Assembly (NCBI GenBank): GCA_964553825.1
Contig: CAZKLT010000004.1
Span: forward strand, 3,137-67,136
From: an uncultured Gammaproteobacteria bacterium
GTDB taxonomy: Bacteria > Patescibacteriota > Microgenomatia > UBA10105 > UBA927
Reading direction: 5' to 3'
Length of the DNA: 64,000 nt
Both the position numbers and the translations under genes were made by a program. Positions within the stretch are counted from its first letter, which is position 1, and each line of letters opens with the position of its first letter. The notes below the pieces were generated by a model, which saw only the letters and a list, made by a program, of their open reading frames with translations, searched no databases and was not told where the DNA came from. Of this stretch, positions 4,715 through 53,680 are shown piece after piece.

Positions 4715-6394
4715 GTGAGAATTTCGAAAAAAAGCGTTGTCATTGGGCTTATTCTTTTTTTTGTCCTGTTTTCGTTTGCCCCGACGTTTTATGAGTGGCA
4801 TGCGCGCTTTCGCATTCATGACGATCGGTATTTTGAGCTGGTGCATAATTTTCCGACTGATTACAATCTCTACCTTTCCCGTATCCGGCAGGGGAAAGAG
4901 GGGGCCTGGCTGGCGACCGAAAAATATACCTCAGAACCGCATGCGGGCAGCTTGAGTCAGATTCTGTATGTAATTATCGGTAGACTTGCCCATTTTTCTC
5001 ATGTTCAGACGCCTTATGTCTGGTTTGCGTATCACGTTGCGCGTGCATTTTTTGCGGCACTGTTGCTGTTCGTCATTTGGAAGGTGTGCGAGTGGGCATT
5101 TGCCAAATCCGGTGAACCGTGGCAAATACTTGCGTTTCTATTGGTTGTGACTGCATCAACATGGCCCAAATTTGAGACGGTCGCCGGTTGGCCGCGGTTT
5201 GGAGGATATATGCCGTGGTACACCATGGCAGACAGTCTTCAGAGAACAACGTTTATGCCCCACGTGACCCTCGCCCAAGGACTTTTGGCGTTTATCATTC
5301 TGGTGTTCAGCGGCGGCGTTGTGACAAAAATTATTCCGGCCAACTGGGTGTTTCTCGGAGTTTTTGGTATTGTCCTTGGCATCGTATTTCCTCCGGGCCT
5401 CATGTTTCTGTATGGAGTTCTTGCGTTTGTGTCCGCAACTGAGCTTCTTATCGTGAAAAAGAAAAAAGGCTGGATACATGAATGGTTCGTCAGGGATTTT
5501 TACGGGAGACTCATATTTGGTATTCTGACCATCCCGACGTTTATCTATTACGCACTGCTTTTGGGGAAGTATCCGTGGAAACGACTCGTTGAATTTGACG
5601 TGCTGCACCCGACCAAATTCTCCTACATGGAATATTTTCTGGCTGTGGGCCCCGTGTTGCCGCTTGGGCTTATCGCCATCATCGTACTTCTGCTGGGGAA
5701 AAAGAAAGAGGCATGGGAACGGTTAAAATATTTCGTTATCTGGGTCGTGGCGTGGTTATTTTTTATGTTTCTGTTTAACCAGATACCCCAGCAATCACCG
5801 ACCCGGTTTACCCAGATGGCGCCGCATATTCCCTTGGGAATTCTTGCCGTGTGGCTCTTCACCCAACTGGCGGGGCGTTTCCGTCACGCGATGGTCGTGC
5901 CGATTGCCATCGTGTTTCTGGCGCTGGGAAGCATGGCATCTTCCTATATGTGGCTCAAGGATTTTGTGGATCACAAACTGCGGGCAACGCTGCCAATCGT
6001 GCCATCGGGAGCACAGGTGATGTATCCGATGCGGGAGATTATCGACGGACTAACCTGGCTTCAGATATATACGCCGAGAAAATCCGTGGTTCTCACCGCG
6101 ATGACGACCGGAAATTATGTCCCGGTCTACGCCGGCAATACGGCGTTTGTCGGTCATGCCAATACCGTGCAACTAGAAGAAAAACTCATAGCAGCCCAGC
6201 AGTTTTATGCAGGCCGTATGGGAACGCCTGAAGGTATGAAATGGCTTGCCGCCAATGGAATTTCGTATGTATTTTTCGGCTTTGAGGAGCGGGAATGGGC
6301 GCAGGGTGTTCAGGATCTTCGCAGCATCTATCCGGCCCTTGAGCTTGTGAACGAATCGCCCAATGTGAAGATATACAAAGTGCCGGGCAATTAG
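4715..6394 (+). CDS. Polytopic membrane protein (GT-C-like glycosyltransferase candidate) with C-terminal soluble domain; GTG start
   Basis: ~12 predicted TM helices followed by ~150 aa hydrophilic C-terminal region; sits in glycosyltransferase context. Confidence 0.55.
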   Translation: MRISKKSVVIGLILFFVLFSFAPTFYEWHARFRIHDDRYFELVHNFPTDYNLYLSRIRQGKEGAWLATEKYTSEPHAGSLSQILYVIIGRLAHFSHVQTPYVWFAYHVARAFFAALLLFVIWKVCEWAFAKSGEPWQILAFLLVVTASTWPKFETVAGWPRFGGYMPWYTMADSLQRTTFMPHVTLAQGLLAFIILVFSGGVVTKIIPANWVFLGVFGIVLGIVFPPGLMFLYGVLAFVSATELLIVKKKKGWIHEWFVRDFYGRLIFGILTIPTFIYYALLLGKYPWKRLVEFDVLHPTKFSYMEYFLAVGPVLPLGLIAIIVLLLGKKKEAWERLKYFVIWVVAWLFFMFLFNQIPQQSPTRFTQMAPHIPLGILAVWLFTQLAGRFRHAMVVPIAIVFLALGSMASSYMWLKDFVDHKLRATLPIVPSGAQVMYPMREIIDGLTWLQIYTPRKSVVLTAMTTGNYVPVYAGNTAFVGHANTVQLEEKLIAAQQFYAGRMGTPEGMKWLAANGISYVFFGFEEREWAQGVQDLRSIYPALELVNESPNVKIYKVPGN

Positions 6395-7095
6395 TTGGTT
6401 CTGAGGACCCGCTGTTGGATCCAGAGACGGAGCAATTCCCGAATCGTTATAAGAATCATAAGCGGATTGGCGCCCTTGGCGCGTCCGGTGGTGCGCGGGT
6501 AGTAGGGAACGGCCACTTCCGTGAATTTGTATCCGTTTTTCCAGGCTTTGTAGATGACCTCAGGTTCTATGAGCGCACTTCGGGGGACAGCCGTAATATC
6601 GATGGCGTTCAGCACCTGTCTGCGCCAGAGGATGCTTGTTGATATTTCCCGTAGTTGCACGCCGAACAATGTCCGATAGAGTGTGTGAAACACGTGGGAA
6701 TTGAGCTTGCGCATCCATGGCTCCGGATTGTTTTTGCGGTAGCCCACCACAACATCTGCATGATCGACTCTGTTGAGGAATAGTTCGCAGTCGGAAGCAT
6801 CGATTTGCCCGTCTGCGGGCAGGAGAAAAACGAGATCCTTGGAAGCCTTCGTATAGCAGGAGCGGATTGCCCCCGAAAATCCTTGGTTTTTCGGATGCCT
6901 GATAACTCTCAGTCCCTTATATTTCCTGGTTAAACCCGCCAGAATCCGCGGAGTTGCATCAGTCGATCCGTCGTCAACGACGAGTACTTCTGCGTTTGCG
7001 GCGAGCCGTTTTGCTGCGGCAAGAGCGGCCACGACGACGCGTTCGATTGAGCCCTCTTCGTTAAATGCCGGAATTGCGATGGTAAGGCTGTTCAT
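6391..7095 (-). CDS. GT2 family glycosyltransferase (polyprenyl-phosphate sugar transferase, DPM1/ArnC/GtrB-like)
   Basis: IAIPAFNEEGSIERVV...VVDDGSTD...; classic GT-A motifs incl. DDGS/DxD. Confidence 0.85.
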   Translation of the reverse strand: MNSLTIAIPAFNEEGSIERVVVAALAAAKRLAANAEVLVVDDGSTDATPRILAGLTRKYKGLRVIRHPKNQGFSGAIRSCYTKASKDLVFLLPADGQIDASDCELFLNRVDHADVVVGYRKNNPEPWMRKLNSHVFHTLYRTLFGVQLREISTSILWRRQVLNAIDITAVPRSALIEPEVIYKAWKNGYKFTEVAVPYYPRTTGRAKGANPLMILITIRELLRLWIQQRVLRTN

Positions 7096-7705
7096 GGATT
7101 TGATCGATTATAGCACGCAATTTTTGGGGAGCGGAAAGGATAATATCCGGGCAAAGCGCGCGCATGCGGGAGGCAGACAACAGCCCCCAGGATACGCCGA
7201 TGCTTGTGATGGAAAGCGCGCGGGCCGCGCCTACATCAGCGTCGGTATCTCCGACAACCGCAAGCGGCAGGGGAATAATCGTTGCAATAACCGGCGCTTT
7301 TTGGTCTCGCGGAGTCAGAACACGATGCTCGGGAAACCAGCGATCAAGACCAAGCGCCGCAAGCTGCGCCAGGAGTCTCATGCGCTGTTTGCGCAGTGTT
7401 ACCAGATAGGGCACATATTGACGAGAGATTTCCTCAATGGCGTGCACCATGCCGTCAAACGGTGTGTCAAGCGCAAGCAGTGCGGTGTCTTCAATGCGTG
7501 CACGGAAATGCGTAAGGAAGGCGTCTGATGCGGTATGCGGGATCGACCGCCCGTTTCGCCGTTTGGTCCAATACGATGTTCGGGACAGAGGGACATGTCC
7601 CATATCCGCAAGAATGGAACTATACAGTGTCCAGAAGCGACGATGAACATCCAAGATCGTTCCGTCCAGGTCAAATACTACTGCGGGGTGCGCATTTTCA
7701 GCCAT
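7061..7705 (-). CDS. HAD-superfamily hydrolase (phosphatase)
   Basis: N-terminal VVFDLDGTILD (DxDGT motif I), later VVGDTDADVGAARA (motif IV-like). Confidence 0.85.
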   Translation of the reverse strand: MAENAHPAVVFDLDGTILDVHRRFWTLYSSILADMGHVPLSRTSYWTKRRNGRSIPHTASDAFLTHFRARIEDTALLALDTPFDGMVHAIEEISRQYVPYLVTLRKQRMRLLAQLAALGLDRWFPEHRVLTPRDQKAPVIATIIPLPLAVVGDTDADVGAARALSITSIGVSWGLLSASRMRALCPDIILSAPQKLRAIIDQIHEQPYHRNSGI

Positions 7706-8544
7706 AGGATTTCTTCTTCTATGTTATCAGGGAAGATGTATCGTGGAACAAAGGAAAGTTCGCGGCGCGCGCGGGCGATTGAATACACGAGATCATGCCG
7801 CTTTATCCGGCTGGGGATGGTGTAAATCGGCAATAAAGGATTGATGCGGTCACGGATGATCCGGGCAGCTGCTCCCACGGTGATTGCATGTCCGGTGCCG
7901 ATACAAAACAGACCGTTCGCCCGTTTGTCTATGGCCAGAAGAATCGCCCGTGCCGCGTCCTCCTTATGCAGATAGTCGCGTCTATTTTCGGGATTTTTCA
8001 CTTCTATGGTTTCGCCGGCAACGGCACGCGAAATGAAATTGGGAATGGCACGCGAGATCATATCTCCCGGACCATACATGGGTGAAAATCTGAGGACTGC
8101 AGTAGGGATACCCACGGATGTTCCGGCTTTGAGTATCAGCTGTTCTGATTTGAGCTTGCTTTTGCCGTACCATGTCGTCGGATGAACCGGGGTACGCTCG
8201 GTAATTTTTTTCGTGCGGGGGATTCGTCCGTATACCTCAATCGTACTTGCATAGAGCAGACCTTTGGCGTGTTGGCCGAATACCGCGATGAGATTCTGTG
8301 TCATGCGCATATTGGCGCCGAAGAGCATTCCCGTATCTTCGACTGCCTTCCGGGGAACAACTGCGGCAAGATGTACGATATAGTCGATTGCCGGGAATGC
8401 GTTTCGTGCGCGCTTCAGGCTCGCTCGATTTAACAGATCAAACCGCGGCCGGCGAAGTTCCCATATGTGATACCCGTTCTTTTCCAAGAGGCGGGTAACC
8501 GAAGGTCCCAAAAATCCCGTGCTTCCGGTGAGAAGGATATTCAT
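7678..8544 (-). CDS. NAD-dependent sugar epimerase/dehydratase (SDR family)
   Basis: MNILLTGSTGFLGPSV Rossmann GxxGxxG; YGKSK catalytic YxxxK. Confidence 0.85.
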   Translation of the reverse strand: MNILLTGSTGFLGPSVTRLLEKNGYHIWELRRPRFDLLNRASLKRARNAFPAIDYIVHLAAVVPRKAVEDTGMLFGANMRMTQNLIAVFGQHAKGLLYASTIEVYGRIPRTKKITERTPVHPTTWYGKSKLKSEQLILKAGTSVGIPTAVLRFSPMYGPGDMISRAIPNFISRAVAGETIEVKNPENRRDYLHKEDAARAILLAIDKRANGLFCIGTGHAITVGAAARIIRDRINPLLPIYTIPSRIKRHDLVYSIARARRELSFVPRYIFPDNIEEEILWLKMRTPQ

Positions 8545-8558
8545 AACTGTTATATCGA

Positions 8559-8580
8559 TTTCTTTGATCGCGCAAAGAAA
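8559..8580. promoter_or_regulatory. Palindrome TTTCTTTG-ATCGCG-CAAAGAAA 14 nt upstream of epimerase start codon (copy 1 of recurring motif)
   Basis: Inverted repeat read from sequence; followed by GAAAGAAAGCGCGCC as in the other copies. Confidence 0.45.
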
Positions 8581-8642
8581 CGGATGAAAGAAAGCGCGCC
8601 CACAGCGAAGATGTCCCTATGGTTCATCGTTTTGGAACACCT

Positions 8643-9689
8643 TCAAGCGGGAATTTTCGCTTGTTTTATTTGTTTGCTGGTTGTCAAAATCGGAAGAAAA
8701 TCCATACCCCGAATCCATACGAGGCCCGGTGGAAGGGGATTAACGCGTCGTTTCGGAAGGTGAGGCATTTCTCCGAAAGCCAGCTTGGTGTAGATAAGCG
8801 GCATATTCAGGCCTGCGTTGGTGAAAAATTGGTGCGTCGTAAAGAAGCGGCCGATATTTATTTCCGTGGGATTGGGGACTCCCCGGGCGTCGTAGGTGAG
8901 GTCTGCGCCATACAAACCATGGGGAGCCGGATCAAGGGCAAGAATCGCTTTCCTGGCTACCTTGTCCACGGTCGCGTCGCGAATAGTGACGCCCGCGCCC
9001 GTTACTCCCGTGATTCCTGAGGGGGCTATTTTGCCCATCTCCCAATACAGCCGTTCGCGTCCCTGAGCAACGATTAATTGTCCTGAATGCCAAATAGACA
9101 TCCAGGTAACGCTTCTTTTTGAGAGGTAGGATGCCGCCGTAAAATGTCCCCAGCCCTCATGAAAGTCAATCCATGCCTTTGCCTGTTTGACGCTGGTGGC
9201 AGCAAGGGAGCCACGACCGGCGGCGCCCTGAATATCGCGTAGCCAGAGTGGAGTACCGAGTGCTTCAAACGCGCGAGTAAGATCAGCGGGCCGCCTGAGA
9301 AGCAGGGTTTGGGGAACGGTAAGACCTGCTTTTTTCCATGCGAGGTAGGATTGAAATTTATCCTGACAGGTGGAAACGACACCATCTGCGGGAAGAAAAA
9401 CCCGAGCGGCCAAATGGTTCCGCATACGACTTATCCATGCGACCTCCTCGTCGTTCTGTGCATGGATAAATGTTATCCGTTCCTTCTTGATAATCTCGTT
9501 GATGACGGCTAAAAATCGTTTATCCGTCGCTTTGGGTACCAGGTATCGTGTATCCGTTTCGGCGCGAGCCAGGTAGTAGGGGTTGGCGTCGGTGCCGACG
9601 AGGTAGAACGGTTCGCCCGCTTCCCGCAGGGATCGAACGAAGTTGGTAGAAGGAGCGCCGCCAGCTCCGGCGATAAGTATGCGTTTCAT
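8643..9689 (-). CDS. ATP-grasp domain enzyme (sugar/amino-acid ligase candidate)
   Basis: MKRILIAGAGGAPSTNFVRSL... Rossmann-like N-domain then ATP-grasp-like central region; true start taken as internal Met because the upstream extension would read through the conserved hairpin. Confidence 0.7.
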   Translation of the reverse strand: MKRILIAGAGGAPSTNFVRSLREAGEPFYLVGTDANPYYLARAETDTRYLVPKATDKRFLAVINEIIKKERITFIHAQNDEEVAWISRMRNHLAARVFLPADGVVSTCQDKFQSYLAWKKAGLTVPQTLLLRRPADLTRAFEALGTPLWLRDIQGAAGRGSLAATSVKQAKAWIDFHEGWGHFTAASYLSKRSVTWMSIWHSGQLIVAQGRERLYWEMGKIAPSGITGVTGAGVTIRDATVDKVARKAILALDPAPHGLYGADLTYDARGVPNPTEINIGRFFTTHQFFTNAGLNMPLIYTKLAFGEMPHLPKRRVNPLPPGLVWIRGMDFLPILTTSKQIKQAKIPA

Positions 9690-9698
9690 AGTATTTTT

Positions 9699-9726
9699 GC
9701 CATTTCTTTGCTCACCCAAAGAAATG
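9699..9726. promoter_or_regulatory. Palindrome CATTTCTTT-GCTCACCC-AAAGAAATG ~10 nt upstream of ATP-grasp start (copy 2)
   Basis: Perfect 9-bp inverted repeat; followed by AAAGAAAGGGTGCCGCGG. Confidence 0.5.
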
Positions 9727-9865
9727 TGCAAAAGAAAGGGTGCCGCGGTGAAGGTTTTTTTGTTTTTCTAGCCTCGCGCAGTGCGGCTGACCCTCGGTTG
9801 AGGATCAACCGTGTCCGCACGCTTGCCGCTCGGCAAGCAAAACTACAAAAACACTTCAATGCGGT
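9727..9865. repeat. Intergenic element copy A (~65-70% identical to 11052..11176), contains GACCCTC-GGTT-GAGGATC and TTGCCG-AGC-GGCAA palindromes
   Basis: Manual alignment of the two intergenic regions shows shared blocks (GAAAG.G.GGCC..GTGAA...GATCCTCGGcTGAGGATC..CCGT.TCC.CACGCT...GCAAG). Confidence 0.5.
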
Positions 9866-11010
9866 TATCTATTCAGTTTGCTCACTAGGGTTAATATGTT
9901 TTCGATAACATATTCCTGTTCTTCTTTCGTTAAGCCGTGATACATGGGGATAGTGAGCGTTTCTGCCGATGCGCGCTGGGTATGGGGGAGGGAAAGCCGC
10001 GGATATAATTTTCTGTACGGAGTTTCCAGGTGAGCTGACGGTATTCCCCGACGCGTGGCAATACCTGCATCAAGCAGTTTCTGCATGAGCCGGTCACGGA
10101 GCGGCGCCCCTGCCCGCAAACGGATCATATAGGATTGGTAGGTGTGGAAATATCCTTCAGGGACGAAGGGCGGGACGATGACGCTATGTCCGGAGAATGC
10201 CTCAGTATACCGTTTGGCGGTTTTCTGCCGTGATGCCAGAATCGTCTGGAGTTTCGTAAATTGAGATAGGCCAAGTGCCGCATGGATATCACTCATGCGT
10301 AGGTTGTAGCCGATGAGGGGATACGATTCAAAAAGAACCTTCTTGCTGGCGTCACGCTTCTTGACGTCGATGGATGCGCCATGTGCCCGCAACAGTGAAA
10401 CCGTGTGGGCAAGCGATCTGTTCGCCGTAACAAATACGCCCCCTTCAGCGGTTGTAATTGCTTTCCGTGGATGAAAAGAAAAAGCCCCCCACGTGCCCCA
10501 GTTGCCGACATGTTTGCCATTGATCGTTGACGCCAATGCGCAGGCACAATCTTCAAATAGCTGTATTTTTGCTGCCCGGGCTATCCGGAAAAGCTCCGGA
10601 AGATTTGCGGCCAGTCCTACCTGATGGACGGCAAGGATGCCACGGGTTTTTTTCGTGATTTTCCGTGCGACATCCTTCGGATCCAGATTGTAGGTGTCAG
10701 GATCTATATCCACAAAAACGGGCGTAGCGCCTGCGTGGACAATACAGTTGGCGCTGGCGATAAAAGAAAATGACGGGACGAGTACTTCATCACCCGGGCC
10801 AATGCCGCTTGCCAGCAGCCCAAGATGCATCGCAGTCGTCGCGCTTGATGTGGCCACCGCATAAGGACTTTTGACATAGGCGCCGATTCGTTTTTCAAAT
10901 GCTTCAACCTTCGTCCCTTGCAACACCCATCCGGAACGGACAACAGAGGCTACTGCCTGTTCATCTTCTTTGGTAAAAAACGGTTTGGCAACAGGAATAA
11001 GTTTTTTCAT
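9865..11010 (-). CDS. DegT/DnrJ/EryC1/StrS-family PLP-dependent sugar aminotransferase
   Basis: MKKLIPVAKPFF..EDEQAV..VVRSGW..QG..V..FE; SxxK-type lysine region; family-typical length; start at internal Met MKKLIP. Confidence 0.9.
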   Translation of the reverse strand: MKKLIPVAKPFFTKEDEQAVASVVRSGWVLQGTKVEAFEKRIGAYVKSPYAVATSSATTAMHLGLLASGIGPGDEVLVPSFSFIASANCIVHAGATPVFVDIDPDTYNLDPKDVARKITKKTRGILAVHQVGLAANLPELFRIARAAKIQLFEDCACALASTINGKHVGNWGTWGAFSFHPRKAITTAEGGVFVTANRSLAHTVSLLRAHGASIDVKKRDASKKVLFESYPLIGYNLRMSDIHAALGLSQFTKLQTILASRQKTAKRYTEAFSGHSVIVPPFVPEGYFHTYQSYMIRLRAGAPLRDRLMQKLLDAGIATRRGIPSAHLETPYRKLYPRLSLPHTQRASAETLTIPMYHGLTKEEQEYVIENILTLVSKLNR

Positions 11011-11019
11011 ATATATCTT

Positions 11020-11051
11020 GATCATTTCTTTGTTCGCTCAAAGAAATGATC
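11020..11051. promoter_or_regulatory. Palindrome GATCATTTCTTT-GTTCGCTC-AAAGAAATGATC 10 nt upstream of aminotransferase start (copy 3, 12-bp perfect stem)
   Basis: Inverted repeat read from sequence; followed by GAAAGAAAGAGCGGCC. Confidence 0.5.
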
Positions 11052-11176
11052 GAAAGAAAGAGCGGCCAGTGAAAATATTCTTATGATTCTATCTTCGCCT
11101 GATGCGGTGGATCCTCGGCTGAGGATCGGCCGTTTCCACACGCTCAGGACTCAGCAAGAATCAACACAGAATATTT
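11052..11176. repeat. Intergenic element copy B (homologous to 9727..9865), contains perfect palindrome GATCCTC-GGCT-GAGGATC at 11110..11127
   Basis: See copy A; direct sequence comparison. Confidence 0.5.
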
Positions 11177-11641
11177 TCAACGGCGTAATTTTACCTGCCT
11201 CACTTTTGTATCATGTTTTTCGAATTTACGAGTTGACCCGACGATCTTGCCTGGGACACCCATCACGAGTGAGTAGGGAGGGATGGTTGCATGTTCGGGT
11301 ATCACCGCCCCGGCGCCCACGACTGAGTGATGCCCAATCGTTACTCCCATAAGCACTACGGCGTTGGCCCCTATGAAGCAGTAGTCACCGATCGTCACAT
11401 TTCCGGTATCAATTTGATTATAGCGTCGTTCACTGATACAACGGTGTACGGTTGAGTGGCTGATAATCTGGGCGCCGGTGGCAATATTGCATCCGCGGCC
11501 GATCGTAACACGGGCGTGCTTGGCGTCGATCAGCGTGAACGCGCCGATCCATGTTTCTTCCCCAATAACGGGGCTTCCCAGAATCCATGCGTGGGGATTA
11601 TAGGGGTTGGGAGGTATGCCTTCGGTGGGCGTGCGTTTCAT
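11177..11641 (-). CDS. Hexapeptide-repeat (LbH) sugar N-acetyltransferase
   Basis: Repeated [LIV]G..x.I hexapeptides (IGDYCFIGANAVVLMGVTIGHHSVVGAGAVI); PglD/WbbJ-like. Confidence 0.85.
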   Translation of the reverse strand: MKRTPTEGIPPNPYNPHAWILGSPVIGEETWIGAFTLIDAKHARVTIGRGCNIATGAQIISHSTVHRCISERRYNQIDTGNVTIGDYCFIGANAVVLMGVTIGHHSVVGAGAVIPEHATIPPYSLVMGVPGKIVGSTRKFEKHDTKVRQVKLRR

Positions 11642-12648
11642 TACCAGTTTTTGTCGGGTACGAGTTTTAACAGTTTATTGGCGTCAGGATAGGATTGTTT
11701 CACCCAGGCGATATATTTTTTTATGCCGGTCCTGATATCAATCTGTGGAGAGTAGGAAAGGGTTTTTTGTGCCTTGCGAATATCTGCGTAATGCCGCATT
11801 ACATCATTTGGACGGGCAGGCTTCATGACGGGTGTGTCAGGCATGCCAATTTCTTCACTGATAATGCGCGCAATTTCACGGATAGTGACTTCTTTCCCGC
11901 GGGCAATATTGATTGCACTTCCCAGGAGCGCATCTGACTGTGACGCTTGTATGATTCCCGCAACGGTGTCGGTGACGTAGGTGAAGTCCCGCGTTTGGGC
12001 CCCTGTGCCAAAGATCATCGGCGCCTTTCCGTTGAGCGCACGAACCACAAAGCGGGGAATCACCTCCCCGTACACGCCTTCAAAATGACTTCTGGGTCCG
12101 TATGTGTTGAAGGGACGAACGATAAGCGTCGGGAGTCCCTGGTGATCGTGAAAATGCTTCGTGTACAGTTCGCCCATGTATTTGCTCATCCCGTACACGG
12201 TTGTCGGGTTTATGGCATGTGTTTCCGGGATTTTGGGTGTTGTGGCGCTTCCGTATACCTCAGACGATGAAATGTAAATAAACCGTTTAACGCCCGCCTT
12301 TTGGGCAGCAAGCAGGGCAGTGAGGGCGCCCGTTGCGTTCACCTCGTGGACATATTGCTCGTCTGAAAGAGACAGGCGTACGCACGCAGCGCTGAAGTGA
12401 AATACCATGTCAACGGATTTCATCGCCCGGGTAAGCGCATCGCGGTCCAAAACATTTCCGTGGATTACCTTTGTCGCACCGAAATGCTTGAGCTGATCCG
12501 GTGTGGTTACGGAAGAGAGAAATGCGTCGTAGACAGTGATATCAGCCTTATTTGCCAGTGTTTCTGTAAAATGAGAACCGATAAATCCAGCGCCTCCGGT
12601 GACGAGAATTTTACGTCCAGATAATTTCATGCCCACGCATAATACCAT
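11641..12648 (-). CDS. NAD-dependent nucleotide-sugar epimerase/dehydratase (extended SDR)
   Basis: [13 protein letters not shown]; YGMSKYMGE (YxxxK); UDP-sugar 4-epimerase/4,6-dehydratase-like. Confidence 0.85.
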   Translation of the reverse strand: MVLCVGMKLSGRKILVTGGAGFIGSHFTETLANKADITVYDAFLSSVTTPDQLKHFGATKVIHGNVLDRDALTRAMKSVDMVFHFSAACVRLSLSDEQYVHEVNATGALTALLAAQKAGVKRFIYISSSEVYGSATTPKIPETHAINPTTVYGMSKYMGELYTKHFHDHQGLPTLIVRPFNTYGPRSHFEGVYGEVIPRFVVRALNGKAPMIFGTGAQTRDFTYVTDTVAGIIQASQSDALLGSAINIARGKEVTIREIARIISEEIGMPDTPVMKPARPNDVMRHYADIRKAQKTLSYSPQIDIRTGIKKYIAWVKQSYPDANKLLKLVPDKNW

Positions 12649-13456: not shown

Positions 13457-14563
13457 TCACGCCGCAAAAAAGCGTTTCATCGTCCGTACAATGAAGGAAA
13501 TTTCCCGGTCTGTCAGTTCTGCATATATGGGCAAGGTAAGCATGGTTTTTGCCCGCATTTCTGCAACGGGAAAATCGCCTGTTTTGTATCCCAGGAACCC
13601 AAGAGCCGGAGTGAGGTGGAGGGGAACGGGATAGTGGATACCCGTATGAATGCCCTGCGCATTGAGGTAGCGCGCCAGTTTGTCCCGTTTGGCTGTACGT
13701 ATCACAAACAGATGGTAGTTTTGGATTTCATCCTTTGCCGACGCGGTGGGAAGCATGATATCGCCGACTCCCGCAAGTTCGCGGAGGAAGATACGGGCGA
13801 TATCGTTTCGTTTCCGGTTCCACGCATCAAGATGTTTGAGCTTGACTGTCAGAACAGCGGCCTGGATGGTATCGAGGCGGCTGTTGACGCCCAGGCGTAC
13901 ATGGTCGTATTTTTTCTTTTGGCCGATATTGCGAAGTATGCGGATTGTCCGGGCAAACCGTTCCTTCTTTGTGACAATGGCGCCGCCGTCCCCGAAGGCT
14001 CCCAGATTTTTCCCGGGATAAAATGAGAATGCCGCGATATCGCCGAATGCTCCCGCCTTCACGCCCGCCAGCGCGGACCCGTGCGCCTGTGCGGCATCCT
14101 CCATGAGGATGAGCGAATGCCTTCGGGCGATGGTTGAAAGCGCTTTCATGGGTGCCGGGCGCCCAAACAGGTGGACGGCGAGTATTGCTTTGGTTTTTTT
14201 CGTGACTGCCCTGGCCACCGCGTCGGGATCGATCCTGCCCGTTTCGTCACAGTCAACGAATACGGGGGTAGCCCCCAGCTCAATAATGGGCAGGACGCTT
14301 GCGATAAACGTGTTGACCTGAACGATGATTTCGTCGCCCCGGGTTATGTCCGTCGCTTCAATCATGAGTTTGATGGCGTCCGTTCCGTTGGCAACGCCGA
14401 CACAATACGGCACATGAATATAGGAGGCAAATGCCTGCTCAAATTCGCGTACCGCATCGCCGAGGATAAAGTCACCCTTTTTGCATATTTCGCCAATCGC
14501 CCGGTCTGCGTCTTTCTTTATGGCCGTGTATTGTCGTGCCAGGTTGACGAGCGGAATATTCAT
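13457..14563 (-). CDS. DegT-family sugar aminotransferase (WbpE-like)
   Basis: MNIPLVNLARQY..I.K.D...I....G.FILG; DAAQAHG; family-typical. Confidence 0.9.
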   Translation of the reverse strand: MNIPLVNLARQYTAIKKDADRAIGEICKKGDFILGDAVREFEQAFASYIHVPYCVGVANGTDAIKLMIEATDITRGDEIIVQVNTFIASVLPIIELGATPVFVDCDETGRIDPDAVARAVTKKTKAILAVHLFGRPAPMKALSTIARRHSLILMEDAAQAHGSALAGVKAGAFGDIAAFSFYPGKNLGAFGDGGAIVTKKERFARTIRILRNIGQKKKYDHVRLGVNSRLDTIQAAVLTVKLKHLDAWNRKRNDIARIFLRELAGVGDIMLPTASAKDEIQNYHLFVIRTAKRDKLARYLNAQGIHTGIHYPVPLHLTPALGFLGYKTGDFPVAEMRAKTMLTLPIYAELTDREISFIVRTMKRFFAA

Positions 14564-15021
14564 CGGGAAACGGGGCGGGCAGGATTTCCAATAACGGTTG
14601 CGCCGTCCGGAACATCGCGCGTAACGACGGCACCTGCTCCCACAAGCGCGTTTTTGCCGATGGTGATACCCGGGAGTATCGTTGCTCCGGCTCCAATGGA
14701 GGCGCCGTCACCGACGTGTGTTCGGTGCATCTGCCAGTCGCAGGCTTCTTTTTTTGTGCCGTCAGGATTGGTCGCTTTAGGATACCGGTCATTGGTGAAG
14801 GTAACATTTGGTCCGATAAACACGCCATCTCCGACCGTGATTCCTTCCGGGATGTATACCATGGCCTGCAGTTTGCAGTTTTTGCCTATAACGACGCCGG
14901 TTTTGATTTCGACAAATGAACCAATAGACGTGCCTTCTCCGATCGTGCATCCGTAAAGGTTCACTTGATCGGGATGATGAATAAGCACGTTCTTGCCGAG
15001 CTTTACGTCATTTTTGATCAT
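14560..15021 (-). CDS. Hexapeptide-repeat N-acetyltransferase (WbpD/WlbB-like)
   Basis: LbH repeats (IGDGASIGAGATILPGITIGKNALVGAGAVV); ATGA overlap with downstream aminotransferase. Confidence 0.85.
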   Translation of the reverse strand: MIKNDVKLGKNVLIHHPDQVNLYGCTIGEGTSIGSFVEIKTGVVIGKNCKLQAMVYIPEGITVGDGVFIGPNVTFTNDRYPKATNPDGTKKEACDWQMHRTHVGDGASIGAGATILPGITIGKNALVGAGAVVTRDVPDGATVIGNPARPVSR

Positions 15022-16052
15022 AGTTTTTTTGATCGGTCCCTCGCAACAACAGCAACTGGCTTGCCCTCATGCCGTAACGATTTTGTGGCTGCTTCAATAC
15101 AGCGTACCACCAAGAGACCCTGATTGCCATCGGCTTGTGGACGTTTCCCGGTACGGATCGTGCGGGTAAATTCAGAAACGACACCAAAAAGCGCTTCCCC
15201 GACGCCAAGCTTCGGGACAACCGCAGTACCGCTTCTGTAGCCAACGCGTAGAGCATACGCCTCTTTGGGATCAGATGTTACGGAAACGCTTTTGTCGTAT
15301 ATTTTTATTTTTTCTGAGGGCTCCATATCGTCATAGACAACCATTTTTTTTGTGCCGACAAAAATCATCCGCCGAATCTTAATAGGGGATAACCAGCTGA
15401 CGTGACTGTGTAAAAAGAGGGACTGGTCATAGGTGGCCGTGATGTGGGCAACCGTTTCCTGGTGGAGGTCTTCCTGTGCAAGTCCTGTTGCGGAAATTTT
15501 GGTCGGCGTTTTGCCGAACAGATACTGCATGATAGAAAAATCATGAACGGCAAGATCAGCAACGACGTTGCTGTCCTTTTGGAAAAGTCCGAGGTTGGTG
15601 CGGACACTGTCGACATATATGACGCGCCCCAAAGTGCCGCGGTCAAGGATTTCCTTCAGTTTCCGTACTGCGGGCGTATAGAGAAATGTATGATCGACCA
15701 TCAGCACTTTTTTTTCACGGTCAGCAAGTGTTGTGAGTTTGAGAGCGTCCTGTGCGGATGCCGTCATCGGCTTCTCAACCAGGACATGTTTGCCTGCCAG
15801 GATAGCCTTTTGAGCCAGCGGAAAGTGGGTACTCGGTGGGGTGACAATGATCACTGCGTGCGTTTTGCTATCGGCAAGCACATCATCTATATTTTTTGTT
15901 GTCCGGACCGTGGGATACATGCGGGGAATTGCCGCAAGAACCCTCGGGTTTACATCACAAACCCACGAAACCGATACGTGGGGAAGGAGAGCGAGGTTTC
16001 GGACGATGTTCGGGCCCCAATAGCCAAATCCAATAACTGCGATACGCATCAT
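15018..16052 (-). CDS. Gfo/Idh/MocA-family NAD-dependent oxidoreductase (WbpB-like sugar 3-dehydrogenase candidate)
   Basis: MRIAVIGFGYWGPNIVRN Rossmann start; EKP motif (VLVEKPM); start set at internal Met. Confidence 0.85.
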   Translation of the reverse strand: MMRIAVIGFGYWGPNIVRNLALLPHVSVSWVCDVNPRVLAAIPRMYPTVRTTKNIDDVLADSKTHAVIIVTPPSTHFPLAQKAILAGKHVLVEKPMTASAQDALKLTTLADREKKVLMVDHTFLYTPAVRKLKEILDRGTLGRVIYVDSVRTNLGLFQKDSNVVADLAVHDFSIMQYLFGKTPTKISATGLAQEDLHQETVAHITATYDQSLFLHSHVSWLSPIKIRRMIFVGTKKMVVYDDMEPSEKIKIYDKSVSVTSDPKEAYALRVGYRSGTAVVPKLGVGEALFGVVSEFTRTIRTGKRPQADGNQGLLVVRCIEAATKSLRHEGKPVAVVARDRSKKL

Positions 16053-16166
16053 ACTGGCGCCAACAATACAGGAAGCGTGCATAATTTGCAAGGCAACTAT
16101 TGAGAAGCTTGACAGCAAACCGGAGAAAGTACATCATAAGGAAGAGTTCGTTGCCGGCACGATACT

Positions 16167-36173: not shown

Positions 36174-36875
36174 TTAGAAGATAGTCGTGTTTGGAAGCAT
36201 TTCCTGGAGAGTAGTGTAGGTTGCGGCGTCGATAGCATTTCCTCCCAGATACAGGTAGCGCAGGTTTGTGAGGCGAGACAATTCCTCAGGGAGCGTGGTG
36301 AGTCTGTTGCTACGCAGATCCAACGACGTTAATGCTGCCAGATCGCCGATCGTAGCCGGGAGATGGGTAATTGCGTTGTTGTTCAGTCGAAGCGTAACGA
36401 GTGCAGTCAGTTTCCCGATTTCGGGGGGGAGTTCTGTAAGCTTGTTGAACGGTAGTTCTAACGCGGTCAAACCGACGAGGTCACCGATTTGCGCAGGCAT
36501 CTGCGCCATCTGCGTATTGCTGACGCGAAGAAACGTGAGCGATGAGAGAAGTCCAATTTCCTGAGGGAGGTGCCGGAAAGAGGCGCTTTCTATGGTTAGC
36601 CGCTCAAGGGCAATGAGCGTGGCGATTTCTGCTGGAAGCATCTCTACAGTATCTTGCGGTGAAATATTGAGATCCTTCAGGTGCGGATTTTCGGCGATGA
36701 TCGCAGCGAGGCGCGCAGTGTCTGTCGGCTGCTGTAGTTGCCCCTGCGAGATGGTGGTGCCGCCAAAATGTGCAAACCGTGCGGCAAGATGCGGCGTAAG
36801 CTGCACCAGGCTGATAATCGCAGCTGCAAGCGATATGATGATGACCAGGGCACTGAGTGTGCGGCGTGCTGTCAT
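36174..36875 (-). CDS. Leucine-rich repeat protein, N-terminal membrane anchor
   Basis: Seven+ 23-aa LRR units (L..LP..IG.L..L..L.L..N.L..LP). Confidence 0.85.
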   Translation of the reverse strand: MTARRTLSALVIIISLAAAIISLVQLTPHLAARFAHFGGTTISQGQLQQPTDTARLAAIIAENPHLKDLNISPQDTVEMLPAEIATLIALERLTIESASFRHLPQEIGLLSSLTFLRVSNTQMAQMPAQIGDLVGLTALELPFNKLTELPPEIGKLTALVTLRLNNNAITHLPATIGDLAALTSLDLRSNRLTTLPEELSRLTNLRYLYLGGNAIDAATYTTLQEMLPNTTIF

Positions 36876-36912
36876 TGACAGTATTTAGTATAGCATGTAA
36901 GACTAAGACTGC

Positions 36913-37344
36913 ATGATGCGGTGGATTGTCATTGGTTTTTGCTGGCTTGTTGCGCTTGCAGCACAGGGCGCGCGTTGGAGCCTGCAGCAGTCTGCCATAG
37001 CTGTCCATGACCAGCCCATCGGGGATACGGTTGTTGTGGATCGCGCGCGTACACCTGAACCAGGTGTTTTGGCTGTTGTAAACTCCCTTTACGGCAAGCC
37101 CTATTTTGAGCATATCCTTGATCAGGTAGACCTTCCCCGCGCGGGGACATATACACAGGTACAGATGTCAATCGCACAATATTCGCTCGGTTCTTCCCAG
37201 GCGCCCGAAGGCACAGAGGGGATATTGTCTCCAGGAAGCCTTGTCTATGCCGTGCTTATGGTTCCTAAGGCGCCGGGAGAAACACCGGAGCCGATGCGTG
37301 ATATTACCGGAAAACCGCTTGCCCACCCATTTCGATTACAGTAG
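36913..37344 (+). CDS. Small exported protein, family A (divergent)
   Basis: Signal anchor then V.DQPIGDTVVVDRA..PG.LAVV pattern shared with 38610..39014. Confidence 0.5.
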   Translation: MMRWIVIGFCWLVALAAQGARWSLQQSAIAVHDQPIGDTVVVDRARTPEPGVLAVVNSLYGKPYFEHILDQVDLPRAGTYTQVQMSIAQYSLGSSQAPEGTEGILSPGSLVYAVLMVPKAPGETPEPMRDITGKPLAHPFRLQ

Positions 37345-38070
37345 CTAGAAGTGTATATCGACATCCGGAAGTATGGCGCGGATGCGTGCCTTTTCTGTCT
37401 CAGAAATAAGATTTCCTCCCACATACAGTCGTTTTAGTGTACCGTTAAGTTTTGTCATGGAGTCAGGCAGCGTCCTGAGCCTATTGGACCGGGCATCCAG
37501 GACGGTCAGCGCCGTAAGATTGCCGATCGAATCGGGAAGCGTGGTGAGGCGATTGTCATAGATGTGCAGCGTGGTGAGGCGCGTAAGCGCTCCGATGGAA
37601 TCCGGAAGGGTCTCAAGCGCGTTTCCGCCCAGCTTCAGTGTCTCCAGCCGTGTAAGATTGCCAATCGTATCCGGAAGGTGCATTATGCGCTGGTCCTGTA
37701 TTTGCAGTCGGGTGAGCGAGGTAAGCGACCCGAGAGAAGCAGGAACGACGCGTACGTTTCCCCGGACAACTCCATAGCGGGCGAGCTGTTTCATGGGCAG
37801 AAGGGTGTCGATGTGAAGCGCGTTGATGTTGCATACCGGCGAATAGTCCAGCGTCGTTACCCGGGGCAATTTTTCCCAGACAGCGCGCAGTGACCTGCCG
37901 GCATCCCGGTCATACGTGCCCAGCGTCTCACAGTATTCCACCGGATCGTACGCCAGTTGTCTTGCAACGGGTTGAACCAGGAGTGTCGCGCCGGATACCC
38001 ATCCGGCAAAAAGGGACACACCCCACAGAAGAAGGGAAAAAGCCGGTGTGTGTCGTGCCTGCATGCGCAT
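37345..38070 (-). CDS. Leucine-rich repeat protein, N-terminal membrane anchor
   Basis: LPDTIGNLTRLETLKLGGNALETLPDSIGALTRLTTLHIYDNRLTTLPDSIGNLTALTVLDARSNRLRTLPDS. Confidence 0.85.
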   Translation of the reverse strand: MRMQARHTPAFSLLLWGVSLFAGWVSGATLLVQPVARQLAYDPVEYCETLGTYDRDAGRSLRAVWEKLPRVTTLDYSPVCNINALHIDTLLPMKQLARYGVVRGNVRVVPASLGSLTSLTRLQIQDQRIMHLPDTIGNLTRLETLKLGGNALETLPDSIGALTRLTTLHIYDNRLTTLPDSIGNLTALTVLDARSNRLRTLPDSMTKLNGTLKRLYVGGNLISETEKARIRAILPDVDIHF

Positions 38071-41072: not shown

Positions 41073-42161
41073 TTAGTTCTTCCAGACGTTGTGGACCAGG
41101 ATGCCCTCCGTGAAGTAATTGTGCTGTTCTCCCGGAAGGCTGAGGTTGTAGACGGGCGGATTTTCGTCTACTGCTGTAATGCTGCCCACGAGTAGCTGGT
41201 TTCCCTGGGGGTCAAGGAGCATATCGTTCACGCGAATAGCGTCGGCTCTGAGCCACGCCTTCCTGTTTTCCACCCAGATATTGTGACCTTTCGTGACACG
41301 CAGTGTCCCGTTGATCACCAGATACCCTGCTTCCTGCGACTCCGGATCTTCCGAGGGACTTGTATGAACCAGAAGCGCGGCTACAGGATTGGGTACCAGA
41401 GTTTCTGTCGTTAGGTCGTAGGAGAGTACAACGTCGCCCGGTCTGATATCCTGTATTTCCTTCAGGGTGCCGTCTGCCATAAGTACCTTGGTGCCAGCCA
41501 GGAAACATCCGCCATAGCTGCCATATGATGATTGCCCGTACCCATAATAGCTTGCTTGTCCATAGCCATAGCTGTAAGAATAGTAGCTGCTTTGGCTATA
41601 GGCATAGTAGTTGGATTGGCTATAGGCATAGTAGTTTGCCTGGCCGTAATTATAGTAGGTGGATTCGGAGTAGGAATAGCAATTATTGGTGTACTGCCCA
41701 TTACCGTCGTCGCAATCTGCACTGAGGGACTTCATGAGGCCAATTCTTCTTCTTCCGGGTGCAGACGCATCATAGTATTGGGCAGTGGGACTAAACCACC
41801 CGTCTGCATCCGCGTCATCAATCCAAAGACCGTTGCCTACCAGAAGCTGGCCGCTGCCGATTGCAATACCACCCGCGCCGTTGATGATAAATTGTCCGGC
41901 AATGATTTTCTGGCTTGACGAGAGGGTCAGATTGTAATCTCCCAGAGTGATGGTAGCGGAATTTGTCGTGGATGATTCGCTGTTTTGCGGGTTGTCTACC
42001 CCGTCAATCGTATATGAGTATGTACAGGAAGCCGTGAGGACGACGTTGCCGTATGTTGTCGCAGGACGGGCACAATCAGCTAACACCGTGTGTTTCGGCG
42101 CGAGAAGGAGCAAGAATACGAGTGCGCAAAGTAATGCAAGGGGTGTGAAAAGTCTTTTCAT
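41073..42161 (-). CDS. Secreted protein with C-terminal Hint (bacterial intein-like, BIL) domain and Tyr/Ser/Gly-rich linker
   Basis: Signal peptide; ...YYAYSQSNYYAYSQSSYYSYSYGYG... then CFLAGTKVLMADG (Hint block A), TKGHNIW (block B TxxH), VYNLSLPGEQHNYFTEGILVHN (blocks F/G) ending 4 aa before stop with Val at +1. Confidence 0.85.
   Translation of the reverse strand: MKRLFTPLALLCALVFLLLLAPKHTVLADCARPATTYGNVVLTASCTYSYTIDGVDNPQNSESSTTNSATITLGDYNLTLSSSQKIIAGQFIINGAGGIAIGSGQLLVGNGLWIDDADADGWFSPTAQYYDASAPGRRRIGLMKSLSADCDDGNGQYTNNCYSYSESTYYNYGQANYYAYSQSNYYAYSQSSYYSYSYGYGQASYYGYGQSSYGSYGGCFLAGTKVLMADGTLKEIQDIRPGDVVLSYDLTTETLVPNPVAALLVHTSPSEDPESQEAGYLVINGTLRVTKGHNIWVENRKAWLRADAIRVNDMLLDPQGNQLLVGSITAVDENPPVYNLSLPGEQHNYFTEGILVHNVWKN
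41560..41660. repeat. Tandem ~24-bp DNA repeats (TTGGCTATAGGCATAGTAGTT..) encoding the NYYAYSQS repeats of the Hint protein
   Basis: Direct repeats read from sequence inside CDS 41073..42161. Confidence 0.6.
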
Positions 42162-45524: not shown

Positions 45525-45526
45525 CG

Positions 45527-51676: not shown

Positions 51677-51677
51677 T

Positions 51678-53677: not shown

Positions 53678-53680
53678 GAT

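Follow-up and report, generated by a model that had tools for sequence, protein, structure and literature searches.

In the 64,000-nucleotide (nt) stretch of contig CAZKLT010000004.1 analyzed here, hereafter the window, a small non-coding element is present in three copies, not two, at the gene junctions of one nucleotide-sugar/polysaccharide operon. Each copy, read 5' to 3' on the minus strand, consists of a 5' rod, a 3' module of about 46 nt, and an A/U-rich tail of 8 to 10 nt that ends at the ATG of the next gene. Very probably, copies A, B, and C belong to a family of structured repeats that was inserted into the operon. The 3' module is predicted to form a pseudoknot whose pyrimidine-rich loop lies in the groove of the adjoining stem as the third strand of a triple helix, and this triple-helix pseudoknot is likely, judging from how its sequence varies, to be the fold under selection.

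Three copies of a structured element in one operon

The original prediction had proposed a duplicated intergenic element of about 130 bp, with 65 to 70% identity between its two segments (9727 to 9865 and 11052 to 11176). Both segments do lie on the minus strand downstream of the aminotransferase and acetyltransferase genes, as it had said, and they are 65% identical (91/139; score z = 8.6, with 0 of 300 dinucleotide shuffles reaching the score). The duplication is real, but its limits had been drawn too narrowly, since the full units run from 9697 to 9864 (copy A) and from 11020 to 11185 (copy B) and are 70% identical (117/168; z = 11.8 versus shuffles). The best-conserved block, CTTTCTTT-N6-TTTCTTTG-N6-CAAAGAAA on the minus strand, is found at or beyond the low-coordinate edge of the segments first noted. 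It recurs in the next spacer, where it marks a third copy, C, outside both of them; shuffled sequences are expected to give 0.00 to 0.01 matches. When a covariance model of the block was applied to all 64 kb of the window without filters, no copies other than these three, each on the minus strand, were recovered (53, 50, and 47 bits); the next match reached 15.8 bits. The copies and their parts, with the structural assignments as predicted, are as follows, where S1a is the strand that pairs with the loop and S2 is the hairpin stem.

11020..11185, minus strand: copy B, whole element; RNA fold -68.8 kcal/mol, z = -6.7; covariance model 53.2 bits
11065..11185, minus strand: copy B 5' rod, a long imperfect hairpin (helices P0 to P5); helices 1 to 6 are 82 to 93% paired, with compensatory changes in 26 of 41 pairs
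11019..11064, minus strand: copy B triplex-pseudoknot module; S1a CGCT 11064-11061, third strand CTTTCTTT 11060-11053, S2 5' arm 11052-11039, loop AGCGAA 11038-11033 (its first 4 nt, 11038-11035, pair with S1a), S2 3' arm 11032-11019
9697..9864, minus strand: copy A, whole element; RNA fold -81.6 kcal/mol, z = -7.8; covariance model 47 bits
9697..9742, minus strand: copy A module; S1a CACC 9742-9739, third strand 9738-9731, S2 5' arm 9730-9717, loop GGTGAG 9716-9711 (GGTG pairs with CACC), S2 3' arm 9710-9697
8553..8651, minus strand: copy C, a short variant (repeat family D3); RNA fold -35.5 kcal/mol, z = -3.8; covariance model 50 bits
8553..8598, minus strand: copy C module; S1a CGCG 8598-8595, third strand 8594-8587, S2 5' arm 8586-8573, loop CGCGAT 8572-8567, S2 3' arm 8566-8553

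Copy B is counted from 11020 because position 11019 is a mismatched C:A end position. It lies between the hexapeptide acetyltransferase gene, whose TGA stop (11179-11177) is within the outer stem of the element, and the ATG of the DegT aminotransferase gene at 11010. Copy A is placed between the DegT gene (TAA stop 9867-9865) and the ATG of the ATP-grasp ligase gene at 9689, and copy C between the ATP-grasp ligase gene (TGA stop 8645-8643, within the stem) and the ATG of the NAD-epimerase gene at 8544. The rod starts at or just past the stop codon of the upstream gene and forms an imperfect hairpin of about 120 nt in copies A and B; in copy C, a 12-bp outer stem with a 16-nt loop takes its place, and the copies range from 99 to 168 nt in size. 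In copies B and C, the TGA stop of the upstream gene falls within a conserved TTGAA of the outer stem. As RNA, all three spacers fold far better than their shuffles (z values above).

A metagenome scan for the window subtype of the block gave at least 120 loci, and in seven of them (L246, L168, L177, L129, L191, L161, and L220, among the matches listed) the upstream region is plainly homologous to the window rod. The similarity is not due to chance, as the original prediction had held, given the shuffle scores (z = 8.6 to 11.8) and these homologues in unrelated metagenomes. The copy in L246, from an unrelated metagenome, matches copy B at 80% identity across 169 nt and is thus closer to B than B is to A. 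RNAalifold, applied to an alignment of nine sequences (window copies A and B with the seven metagenomic copies), returned a six-helix rod followed by a 3' hairpin. With the pseudoknot included, the alignment holds 58 pairs, which are 91% paired versus 76% in shuffles, and 33 of the pairs have changes on both sides. The covariation score is 0.489 versus 0.196 for shuffled alignments (0/500 reach the score) and at most 0.114 for slid registers, with the rod structure derived from the same nine sequences on which it was scored. The conserved single-stranded or irregular parts of the element are CUUACCGAG, GUGNGGAAAC, GAGGAUCC, and CGAGGUUAGA.

The emphasis of the original prediction had been on a perfect palindrome, and this is indeed found in both copies, at 11110-11127 in copy B (GATCCTCGGCTGAGGATC; GATCCTC-loop-GAGGATC) and at 9789-9806 in copy A (GACCCTCGGTTGAGGATC). 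It is not the conserved key part, however: it forms the apical tip of the rod, the least conserved portion, and the tip hairpin differs in sequence in every family member. The triplex-pseudoknot module had been missed.

A predicted triple-helix pseudoknot at the 3' end

The module spans 50 nt in its full layout: four nucleotides, then CUUUCUUU, then a hairpin of the form xxxxxUUUCUUUG-N6-CAAAGAAAxxxxx. Its covariation was followed in about 100 distinct copies (98 sequences) from at least 240 loci, with the first C of CTTTCTTT numbered as position 0. Past the fixed core, the hairpin is extended by six covarying pairs, from 13:36 to 8:41, of which five are 96 to 99% paired and the outermost, 8:41, is 80% paired; at pair 9:40, C-G and G-C occur near parity (59 and 50). 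The hairpin loop opens with four nucleotides whose pairing partners lie just ahead of position 0 (-1:22 in 97%, -2:23 in 96%, -3:24 in 88%, and -4:25 in 78%), so that this pseudoknot stem is 90% paired overall, as opposed to at most 55% in shifted registers, and all four of its pairs show double changes among the 98 distinct sequences. The structure score of the module is 0.419 versus 0.111 in shuffles (0/500), and at most 0.096 in slid registers. All three window copies follow the pairing rule, with CGCT/AGCG in B, CACC/GGTG in A, and CGCG/CGCG in C. From these patterns, the module is predicted to be an H-type pseudoknot with a stem 1 of 4 bp, a loop 1 of CUUUCUUU, a stem 2 of 13 to 14 bp, a loop 2 of 0 nt, and a loop 3 of 2 nt. 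The covariance check proposed with the original prediction therefore comes out positive, since rod helices, hairpin, and pseudoknot stem all covary.

In this model, loop 1 would run in the major groove of stem 2, parallel to the purine 3' arm CAAAGAAA. CUUUCUUU is in exact register with CAAAGAAA, which predicts three U.A-U triples, one C+.G-C triple, and three more U.A-U triples. The common purine tract, AAAGAAA, is its own mirror image, and this form cannot tell a third strand from a direct repeat of the 5' arm. The informative copies are 42 hairpins with an asymmetric purine tract. An exact third-strand match was found in 22 of them; 21 fit the mirror reading only, 1 fits both readings, and none fits the direct repeat only. 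These matches represent five core types, namely AAAGAAAA (third strand TTTCTTTT), AAGAAAA (TTCTTTT), AAAAGAAA (TTTTCTTT), AAGAGAAA (TTCTCTTT), and AGAAGAA, and in every case the 5' arm obeys Watson-Crick complementarity. The remaining 20 hairpins have no exact full-length match, mostly as the purine run goes on past the core into the extended stem. Nine of the 20 come from a sister family with the core AAAAGAA and the third strand TTTTCTT, which fits the mirror rule by eye. In this sister family, from Desulfobulbales-type loci, the loop, again as read by eye, pairs with five upstream nucleotides (GTGCC/GGCAC). The register is thus mirror only (21 to 22 exact cases and 9 by eye, versus 0 direct), which therefore argues for a U.A-U/C+.G-C triple helix. 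Two other readings of CUUUCUUU, as no more than a direct repeat and as the Watson-Crick partner in the second state of a two-state switch, were discarded, because the exact asymmetric variants are mirror images and would mismatch in the alternative hairpin.

By itself, the mirror rule could also arise from a purine-motif triplex formed by the complementary strand of the DNA. At the helix positions that depart from Watson-Crick pairing, the motif strand has 182 G.T versus 40 A.C, and because of this excess of G.T wobbles we take the pyrimidine-motif strand to be the one under selection. The folding strand would then be the CTTTCTTT strand, which is mRNA-sense in the window. Protein coding was also considered and rejected; the tracts give hydrophobic-then-basic peptides in some copies, but the variation obeys pairing and wobble rules, not codons. 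The extension below the triplex is an invariant 6 bp, which would correspond to the length of stem that, in pseudoknot geometry, can be spanned across the deep groove when no linker is present.

A second, independent triplex-knot family, GTGCC-ATTTTCTTG-TTTCTTCTTTTG-GGCACG-CAAAAGAAGAAA, was seen at about 200 to 400 nt upstream of the main motif in L131, L137, L166, L187, L197, L218, L239, and L244; here too, GTGCC would pair with the loop, and TTTTCTT as third strand mirrors AAAAGAA.

Intrastrand triplex motifs are defined by the ITxF criteria as three blocks of 6 to 15 nt separated by loops of 1 to 6 nt. Class IV of the Hoyne/Maher scheme comprises the pyrimidine-motif intrastrand triplexes, which are said to make up about 4% of motifs; of the polarity types, this one alone can form in RNA as well. 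The module has a Hoogsteen pyrimidine block, a Watson-Crick pyrimidine block, and a purine block in the correct polarity, and on its sequence would be assigned to class IV. No verbatim match to the motif was found in the open literature searched by text, which otherwise returned only irrelevant papers, and the module sequence does not occur in the main text or in the supplements, one of them available only in part, of Holder et al. 2015 (PMC4666352).

Insertion into operon junctions and occurrence across bacteria

All window genes around the copies are on the minus strand and form one operon, in which each of the three copies occupies one cistron junction:

12648..11644, minus strand: NAD-epimerase/dehydratase
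11641..11180, minus strand: hexapeptide acetyltransferase; copy B in the spacer downstream
11010..9868, minus strand: DegT aminotransferase; copy A in the spacer downstream
9689..8646, minus strand: ATP-grasp (PylC-like) ligase; copy C in the junction downstream
8544..7681, minus strand: NAD-epimerase
7705..7064, minus strand: HAD hydrolase
7095..6394, minus strand: GT2 glycosyltransferase

Homologues of the ATP-grasp protein pointed to syntenic operons. Start and stop codons overlap by 4 nt (ATGA type) at every junction in L122 (72% identity) and L127/L128 (74%), and because the same junctions are gene overlaps in these relatives, the window copies are read as insertions. In the closest relative, L123 (82%), junction A measures 10 nt and junction C holds a decayed 60-nt module without a rod (22 bits). 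Filled and empty junctions are thus both present among the relatives. Moreover, alignment of the protein ends indicates that the window acetyltransferase has gained 12 codons that run into the element. At some of the same junctions, L121 and L124 carry a different structured element of 190 to 220 nt (L121:5801-6040, L121:7090-7273, and L124:588-808), which reads TTGAAGACAACTGCGCNTTTGC ... GCAAANGCGCACTTAGC ...; the L124 copy has a CGAGGAGCAC block in common with Desulfurivibrio-type elements. These operon junctions appear to be recurrent landing sites for structured elements. Gene order is conserved in the relatives, and the elements are accordingly not shuffled cassettes.

A second acetyltransferase-aminotransferase gene pair, preceded by a GFO/IDH/MocA oxidoreductase gene, lies upstream at 13457-16118 (compared with 9865-11641 for the first). 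Its genes overlap and hold no inserted element, and L121 and L122 show the same arrangement.

The left end of the element (GCC/CCGC followed by TTGAAG...) and its right end (...CAAAGAAATGATC) are not reverse complements, so that terminal inverted repeats are absent and the hairpin is internal, not terminal. In the Desulfurivibrio-type family, the right boundary of the element coincides with the end of the knot hairpin. Target-site duplications were searched for by eye at the three window junctions against the empty sites, where none was consistent (a doubtful ATGA-type echo occurs at junction B only), and in 23 copies of the Desulfurivibrio-type sister family, where the longest word shared by the flanks averages 3.0 versus 3.19 in controls. 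Of the features of a classical miniature inverted-repeat transposable element (MITE), the element has the small size, the lack of coding capacity, the multiple copies, and the variable presence, and it lacks the terminal inverted repeats and the target-site duplication. The suggestion of a MITE-like element is thus right as to an inserted repeat family and wrong as to a classical MITE. No transposase, integrase, reverse transcriptase, or TnpB domain was detected in the 47 largest window open reading frames (ORFs), and no recurrent neighboring protein was found among the ORFs within 2.5 to 3 kb of about 270 copies; two large clusters of neighbor proteins were set aside as translations of the repeat itself.

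Outside the window, the exact 24-nt core was found in at least 120 loci of a collection with one genome per species and in at least 120 metagenome loci, so that the copy count proposed with the original prediction gives a third window copy and at least 240 loci elsewhere. Most of the genome matches listed are from Burkholderiaceae (Caballeronia, Paraburkholderia, and Ralstonia), Oxalobacteraceae, Comamonadaceae, Neisseriales, and Xanthomonadales. Further matches fall in Desulfurivibrionaceae, a Bacteroidales genome bin, Chitinophaga, a Selenomonadaceae bin, Candidatus Chisholmbacteria, and a Patescibacteria bin. The 5' domain that precedes this common 3' module differs from lineage to lineage, and by sequence comparison the rod of A and B appears specific to the window lineage and the 3' module common across phyla. 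The Ralstonia version reaches 2 to 20 copies per megaplasmid, none of them annotated. The motif strand is the C-rich strand of the locus in 52 of 74 loci with |skew| > 0.03, the window included; this bias is modest and could stem from replication or from gene orientation. Association with downstream start codons was not significant once GTG artefacts were discounted (18 versus 11 in metagenomes).

Several further arrangements were observed. In Caballeronia and Paraburkholderia, two modules stand head-to-head in palindromic units of about 500 to 700 bp that resemble REPIN doublets (L002:6085-6790; also L004, L005, L006, L011, L027, L030, and others). In L002, the Rfam family Bp1_684 (RF02421) begins right at the 3' arm of the module; Bp1_684 is a Burkholderia small RNA candidate that was positive by reverse transcription-PCR (RT-PCR) in the pdhB-lpdA spacer of B. 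pseudomallei. In two divergent contigs of low GC content (36 to 39%), a window-type element lies antisense beside a YbaK-like/TrpB-like gene pair (L161:4597-4774 and L177:1924-2101). The two contigs look orthologous, with protein N termini about 55 to 60% identical by eye, and this shared site suggests that selection has kept the element there or that it was inserted there more than once.

Around the start codons, no Shine-Dalgarno sequence was found at any of 37 inspected window starts, and the upstream regions are A/U-rich. An ATG within the knot 3' arm of copy A (9710-9687) opens a 5-codon mini-ORF whose TGA overlaps the ATP-grasp start (ATGA). The knot-arm ATG of copy B (11025-11008) is in frame with the DegT start, and copy C has no such ATG; the pattern is inconsistent.

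Elsewhere in the window, about 10 tandem paralogous ORFs of 390 to 520 amino acids on the plus strand (42866-57908) have blocks in common (repeat families D1, D2, and D8; e.g., ...CYEREIPKLMN...). None of them has a Pfam match at E <= 1e-5 except for a borderline Cupredoxin_1 (43956-45521, E = 3.7e-06). Two leucine-rich-repeat proteins and a PT-HINT (pretoxin Hint) protein are encoded at 36174-38070 and 41076-42161, and one leucine-rich-repeat protein has a 69-bp periodic repeat at 37508-37747.

Comparison with known systems and choice between explanations

Searches against Rfam 15 gave no match in the whole window at the gathering threshold (SAM-II, SAM-V, preQ1-II, HEARO, JUMPstart, and others), only a chance CRISPR-DR8 match elsewhere in the region for 8000-12000 at E <= 10, and, for 14 family loci, only the Bp1_684 match that adjoins the module in L002. 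The MITE-like repeats ERIC/IRU, Correia/NEMIS, RUP/BOX, and the Rickettsia RPE are co-transcribed in operons, and some provide stop codons or change mRNA stability. The window element is like them in its size of 100 to 200 nt, in being a transcribed intergenic insertion with a long imperfect mRNA hairpin, and in its variable presence. Families of the ERIC type end in inverted repeats, generally duplicate a TA or another short target, and keep to one genus or family, whereas the window element has asymmetric ends, no detectable duplication, stem covariation, and a predicted 3' triplex knot found across phyla. REP, BIME, and REPIN sequences, of 20 to 40 nt with a conserved GTAG-type head, are mobilized by RAYT transposases, and their single-strand fold is the recognized unit. 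This fold may be counted as a likeness, along with the extragenic location, the multiple copies, the absence of an adjacent transposase, the hairpin, and the head-to-head doublets in some hosts (Caballeronia); the window element differs in lacking a GTAG-type head and in its unit of 100 to 200 nt with a putative triplex.

A likeness in the arrangement of blocks is seen with BoxC/TMECO of E. coli, which are potential intrastrand triplex (PIT) repeats (Hoyne et al. 2000; Holder et al. 2015, PMC4666352). The TMECO consensus, CCCTCNCCC-N3-6-GGGNGAGGG-N3-GGGNGAGGG, is G/C-rich and has been studied as a purine-motif DNA triplex (PMC4666352). Both are interspersed, multi-copy bacterial repeats with three consecutive homopurine/homopyrimidine blocks and short loops, which would give a one-strand triplex. 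BoxC/TMECO has been reported without promoter or terminator activity and without an orientation rule; for the window element, our scans gave no promoter or terminator consensus on its strand, and orientation is mixed across the family. In contrast to TMECO, the module has an A/T-rich core of unrelated sequence, belongs by prediction to the pyrimidine motif (class IV), and comes with a covarying pseudoknot stem, a 6-bp helix extension, a large structured 5' domain, and an occurrence in several phyla.

Among RNAs, U.A-U major-groove triple helices are found in the SAM-II, SAM-V, and preQ1-II riboswitches, in telomerase RNA, and in the ENE of PAN, MALAT1, and transposon RNAs. The predicted topology of the module is the same, with a pyrimidine-rich loop 1 parallel to the purine strand of stem 2, and MALAT1 has a C+.G-C triple among its U.A-U triples, as predicted here. 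The module differs from this group in being multi-copy and mobile, in having no poly(A) tail to clamp, and in the lack of an Rfam match; because it is not tied to one gene class, a riboswitch is unlikely. H-type pseudoknots with such a triple helix are on record (e.g., PMC6061858).

Our preferred explanation is that a small, non-coding, non-autonomous interspersed element was inserted three times at the cistron boundaries of an ancestrally compact operon with ATGA overlaps. The family would spread as a folded single strand, either RNA or single-stranded DNA, and the triplex knot at its 3' boundary would be a handle that is recognized or protected by a trans-acting enzyme encoded elsewhere. The three operon copies would be transcribed along with the genes, forming very stable RNA structures between the cistrons that could hold back 3' exonucleases or be sites of processing. 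The element may also replace translational coupling, with initiation occurring de novo on the A/U-rich tail of 8 to 10 nt before the ATG in a genome without Shine-Dalgarno sequences. As a whole, from the inserted repeat and the selected knot to the spread and the operon role, this explanation seems to us reasonably probable; how the family spreads and what the RNA does in this operon are, taken jointly, offered tentatively.

Several observations weigh against this explanation. The triple helix is deduced from patterns of sequence variation, its central C+.G-C triple requires a protonated cytosine, and nothing can be learned from the invariance of the core, whose 24 nt the search patterns had prescribed. 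Neither an intermediate of transposition or retrotransposition, nor an enzyme, nor the exact ends of the element were identified. Only three copies are present in 64 kb, all within 2.6 kb, and for this reason A and B may have arisen by local duplication or gene conversion. If the site shared by L161 and L177 is orthologous, as it appears by eye, a selected function may be at work rather than selfish spread. Finally, orientation relative to the flanking genes is mixed (19 opposite/opposite, 13 same/same, 14 convergent, and 4 divergent in crude gene calls), and about half of the close relatives of the window type are antisense; a general cis-acting role in mRNA is therefore disfavored.

This last point bears on a host-selected, cis-acting intercistronic RNA, in which the rod would be an RNase III/RNase E site and the knot would block 3'-to-5' exonucleases, stabilizing the upstream cistron and setting differential operon expression, as has been reported for REP, ERIC, and Correia. 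Such a role can coexist with a mobile origin. It would fit the sense orientation of all three window copies, the end of the knot 8 to 10 nt before the next ATG, the very stable RNA folds, the stop codons of two upstream genes inside the outer stem, and the lack of a terminator-like T-run, from which read-through is expected; a Burkholderia sister element in the pdhB-lpdA spacer also adjoins the RT-PCR-validated small RNA candidate. However, orientation across the family is close to random and relatives have no element, or an unrelated one, at the same junctions, which leaves this explanation unlikely. An independently transcribed family of small RNA genes, trans-acting or protein-binding, with the knot stabilizing the RNA 3' end, would account for the complex covarying multi-helix structure, for the apparent antisense retention in L161 and L177, and for the -10-like hexamers seen by eye just upstream of some copies. 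It is improbable in view of the position of the window copies within an operon and with no promoter-like site, the 2 to 20 copies per replicon, the polymorphic occupancy of junctions, and the different 5' domains of the lineages.

To an equal degree, we consider it improbable that the element is an orphan guide-RNA scaffold or a palindrome-associated derivative (PATE) of an IS200/IS605-type transposon. The reRNA of ISDra2 TnpB is reported to have both a triplex and a pseudoknot, with a scaffold that ends at the transposon boundary, much as the window-type knot stands at the 3' boundary; the asymmetric ends without target duplication, which such transposons have too, and the C-rich-strand bias (above) point the same way. 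Against it, neither TnpB, TnpA, nor another recurrent protein lies near the roughly 270 copies or in the window, in a search that covered the 2.5 to 3 kb around each copy and the 47 largest window ORFs. Furthermore, the pseudoknot connectivity differs, with the loop pairing to 4 nt located 5' of the third strand instead of 5 nt next to the guide, no conserved target-adjacent motif was seen, and the head-to-head palindromic pairs of Caballeronia are unlike IS605 architecture. A DNA-level intrastrand triplex or H-DNA, formed in single-stranded or supercoiled DNA and causing polymerase stalling or recombination hot spots as proposed for BoxC/TMECO, corresponds to the recombinogenic reading of the original prediction and would agree with the formal triplex definition, with the mirror symmetry, which suits a purine-motif triplex too, and with the different elements found at the same junctions in different relatives. 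We give it only a slight chance, as the 182:40 wobble asymmetry points to the pyrimidine-motif strand, a pseudoknot stem and a covarying 120-nt rod would be superfluous for H-DNA, and the gene order around the elements is conserved. Integron attC sites between gene cassettes, or the promoter/terminator module that the original prediction had also entertained, might be called to mind by imperfect palindromes downstream of unrelated genes with a structure conserved more than the sequence. Both are scarcely credible, given that neither strand has RYYYAAC...GTTRRRY cores, that the 47 window ORFs include no integrase, that relatives keep the same gene order without the elements, and that consensus scans of the minus strand within the elements detected no sigma-70 -35/-10 hexamers and no intrinsic terminator (GC-rich stem with a T-run).

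Returning to the inserted repeat with a selected knot, interspersed structured repeats and potential intrastrand triplex motifs are already known in bacteria. The combination of a pyrimidine-motif triple helix with a pseudoknot that locks it, almost unchanged in sequence from phylum to phylum and backed by covariation of its triples, appears not to have been described before. It is conceivable, though we hold it with less assurance than the mode of spread and the operon role above, that the CUUUCUUU / UUUCUUUG / CAAAGAAA knot represents a previously undescribed class of structured modules. Such a class would be the common 3' handle of lineage-specific elements of 100 to 200 nt in several phyla, with Beta- and Gammaproteobacteria, Desulfobulbales, bins labelled Patescibacteria, Bacteroidota, and Selenomonadaceae as hosts. 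The knot might then be read by a transposase, a reverse transcriptase, or an RNA-guided protein, or might shield RNA 3' ends, and by analogy would be a bacterial major-groove triple-helix pseudoknot comparable to the ENE and telomerase triple helices of eukaryotes and viruses. This raises the question of which protein recognizes or mobilizes the knot. For genome annotation, the element accounts for large spacers that break up otherwise overlapping operon genes, and, if the fold forms in vivo, it would offer a small, naturally occurring system in which to study triple helices of bacterial RNA or DNA.

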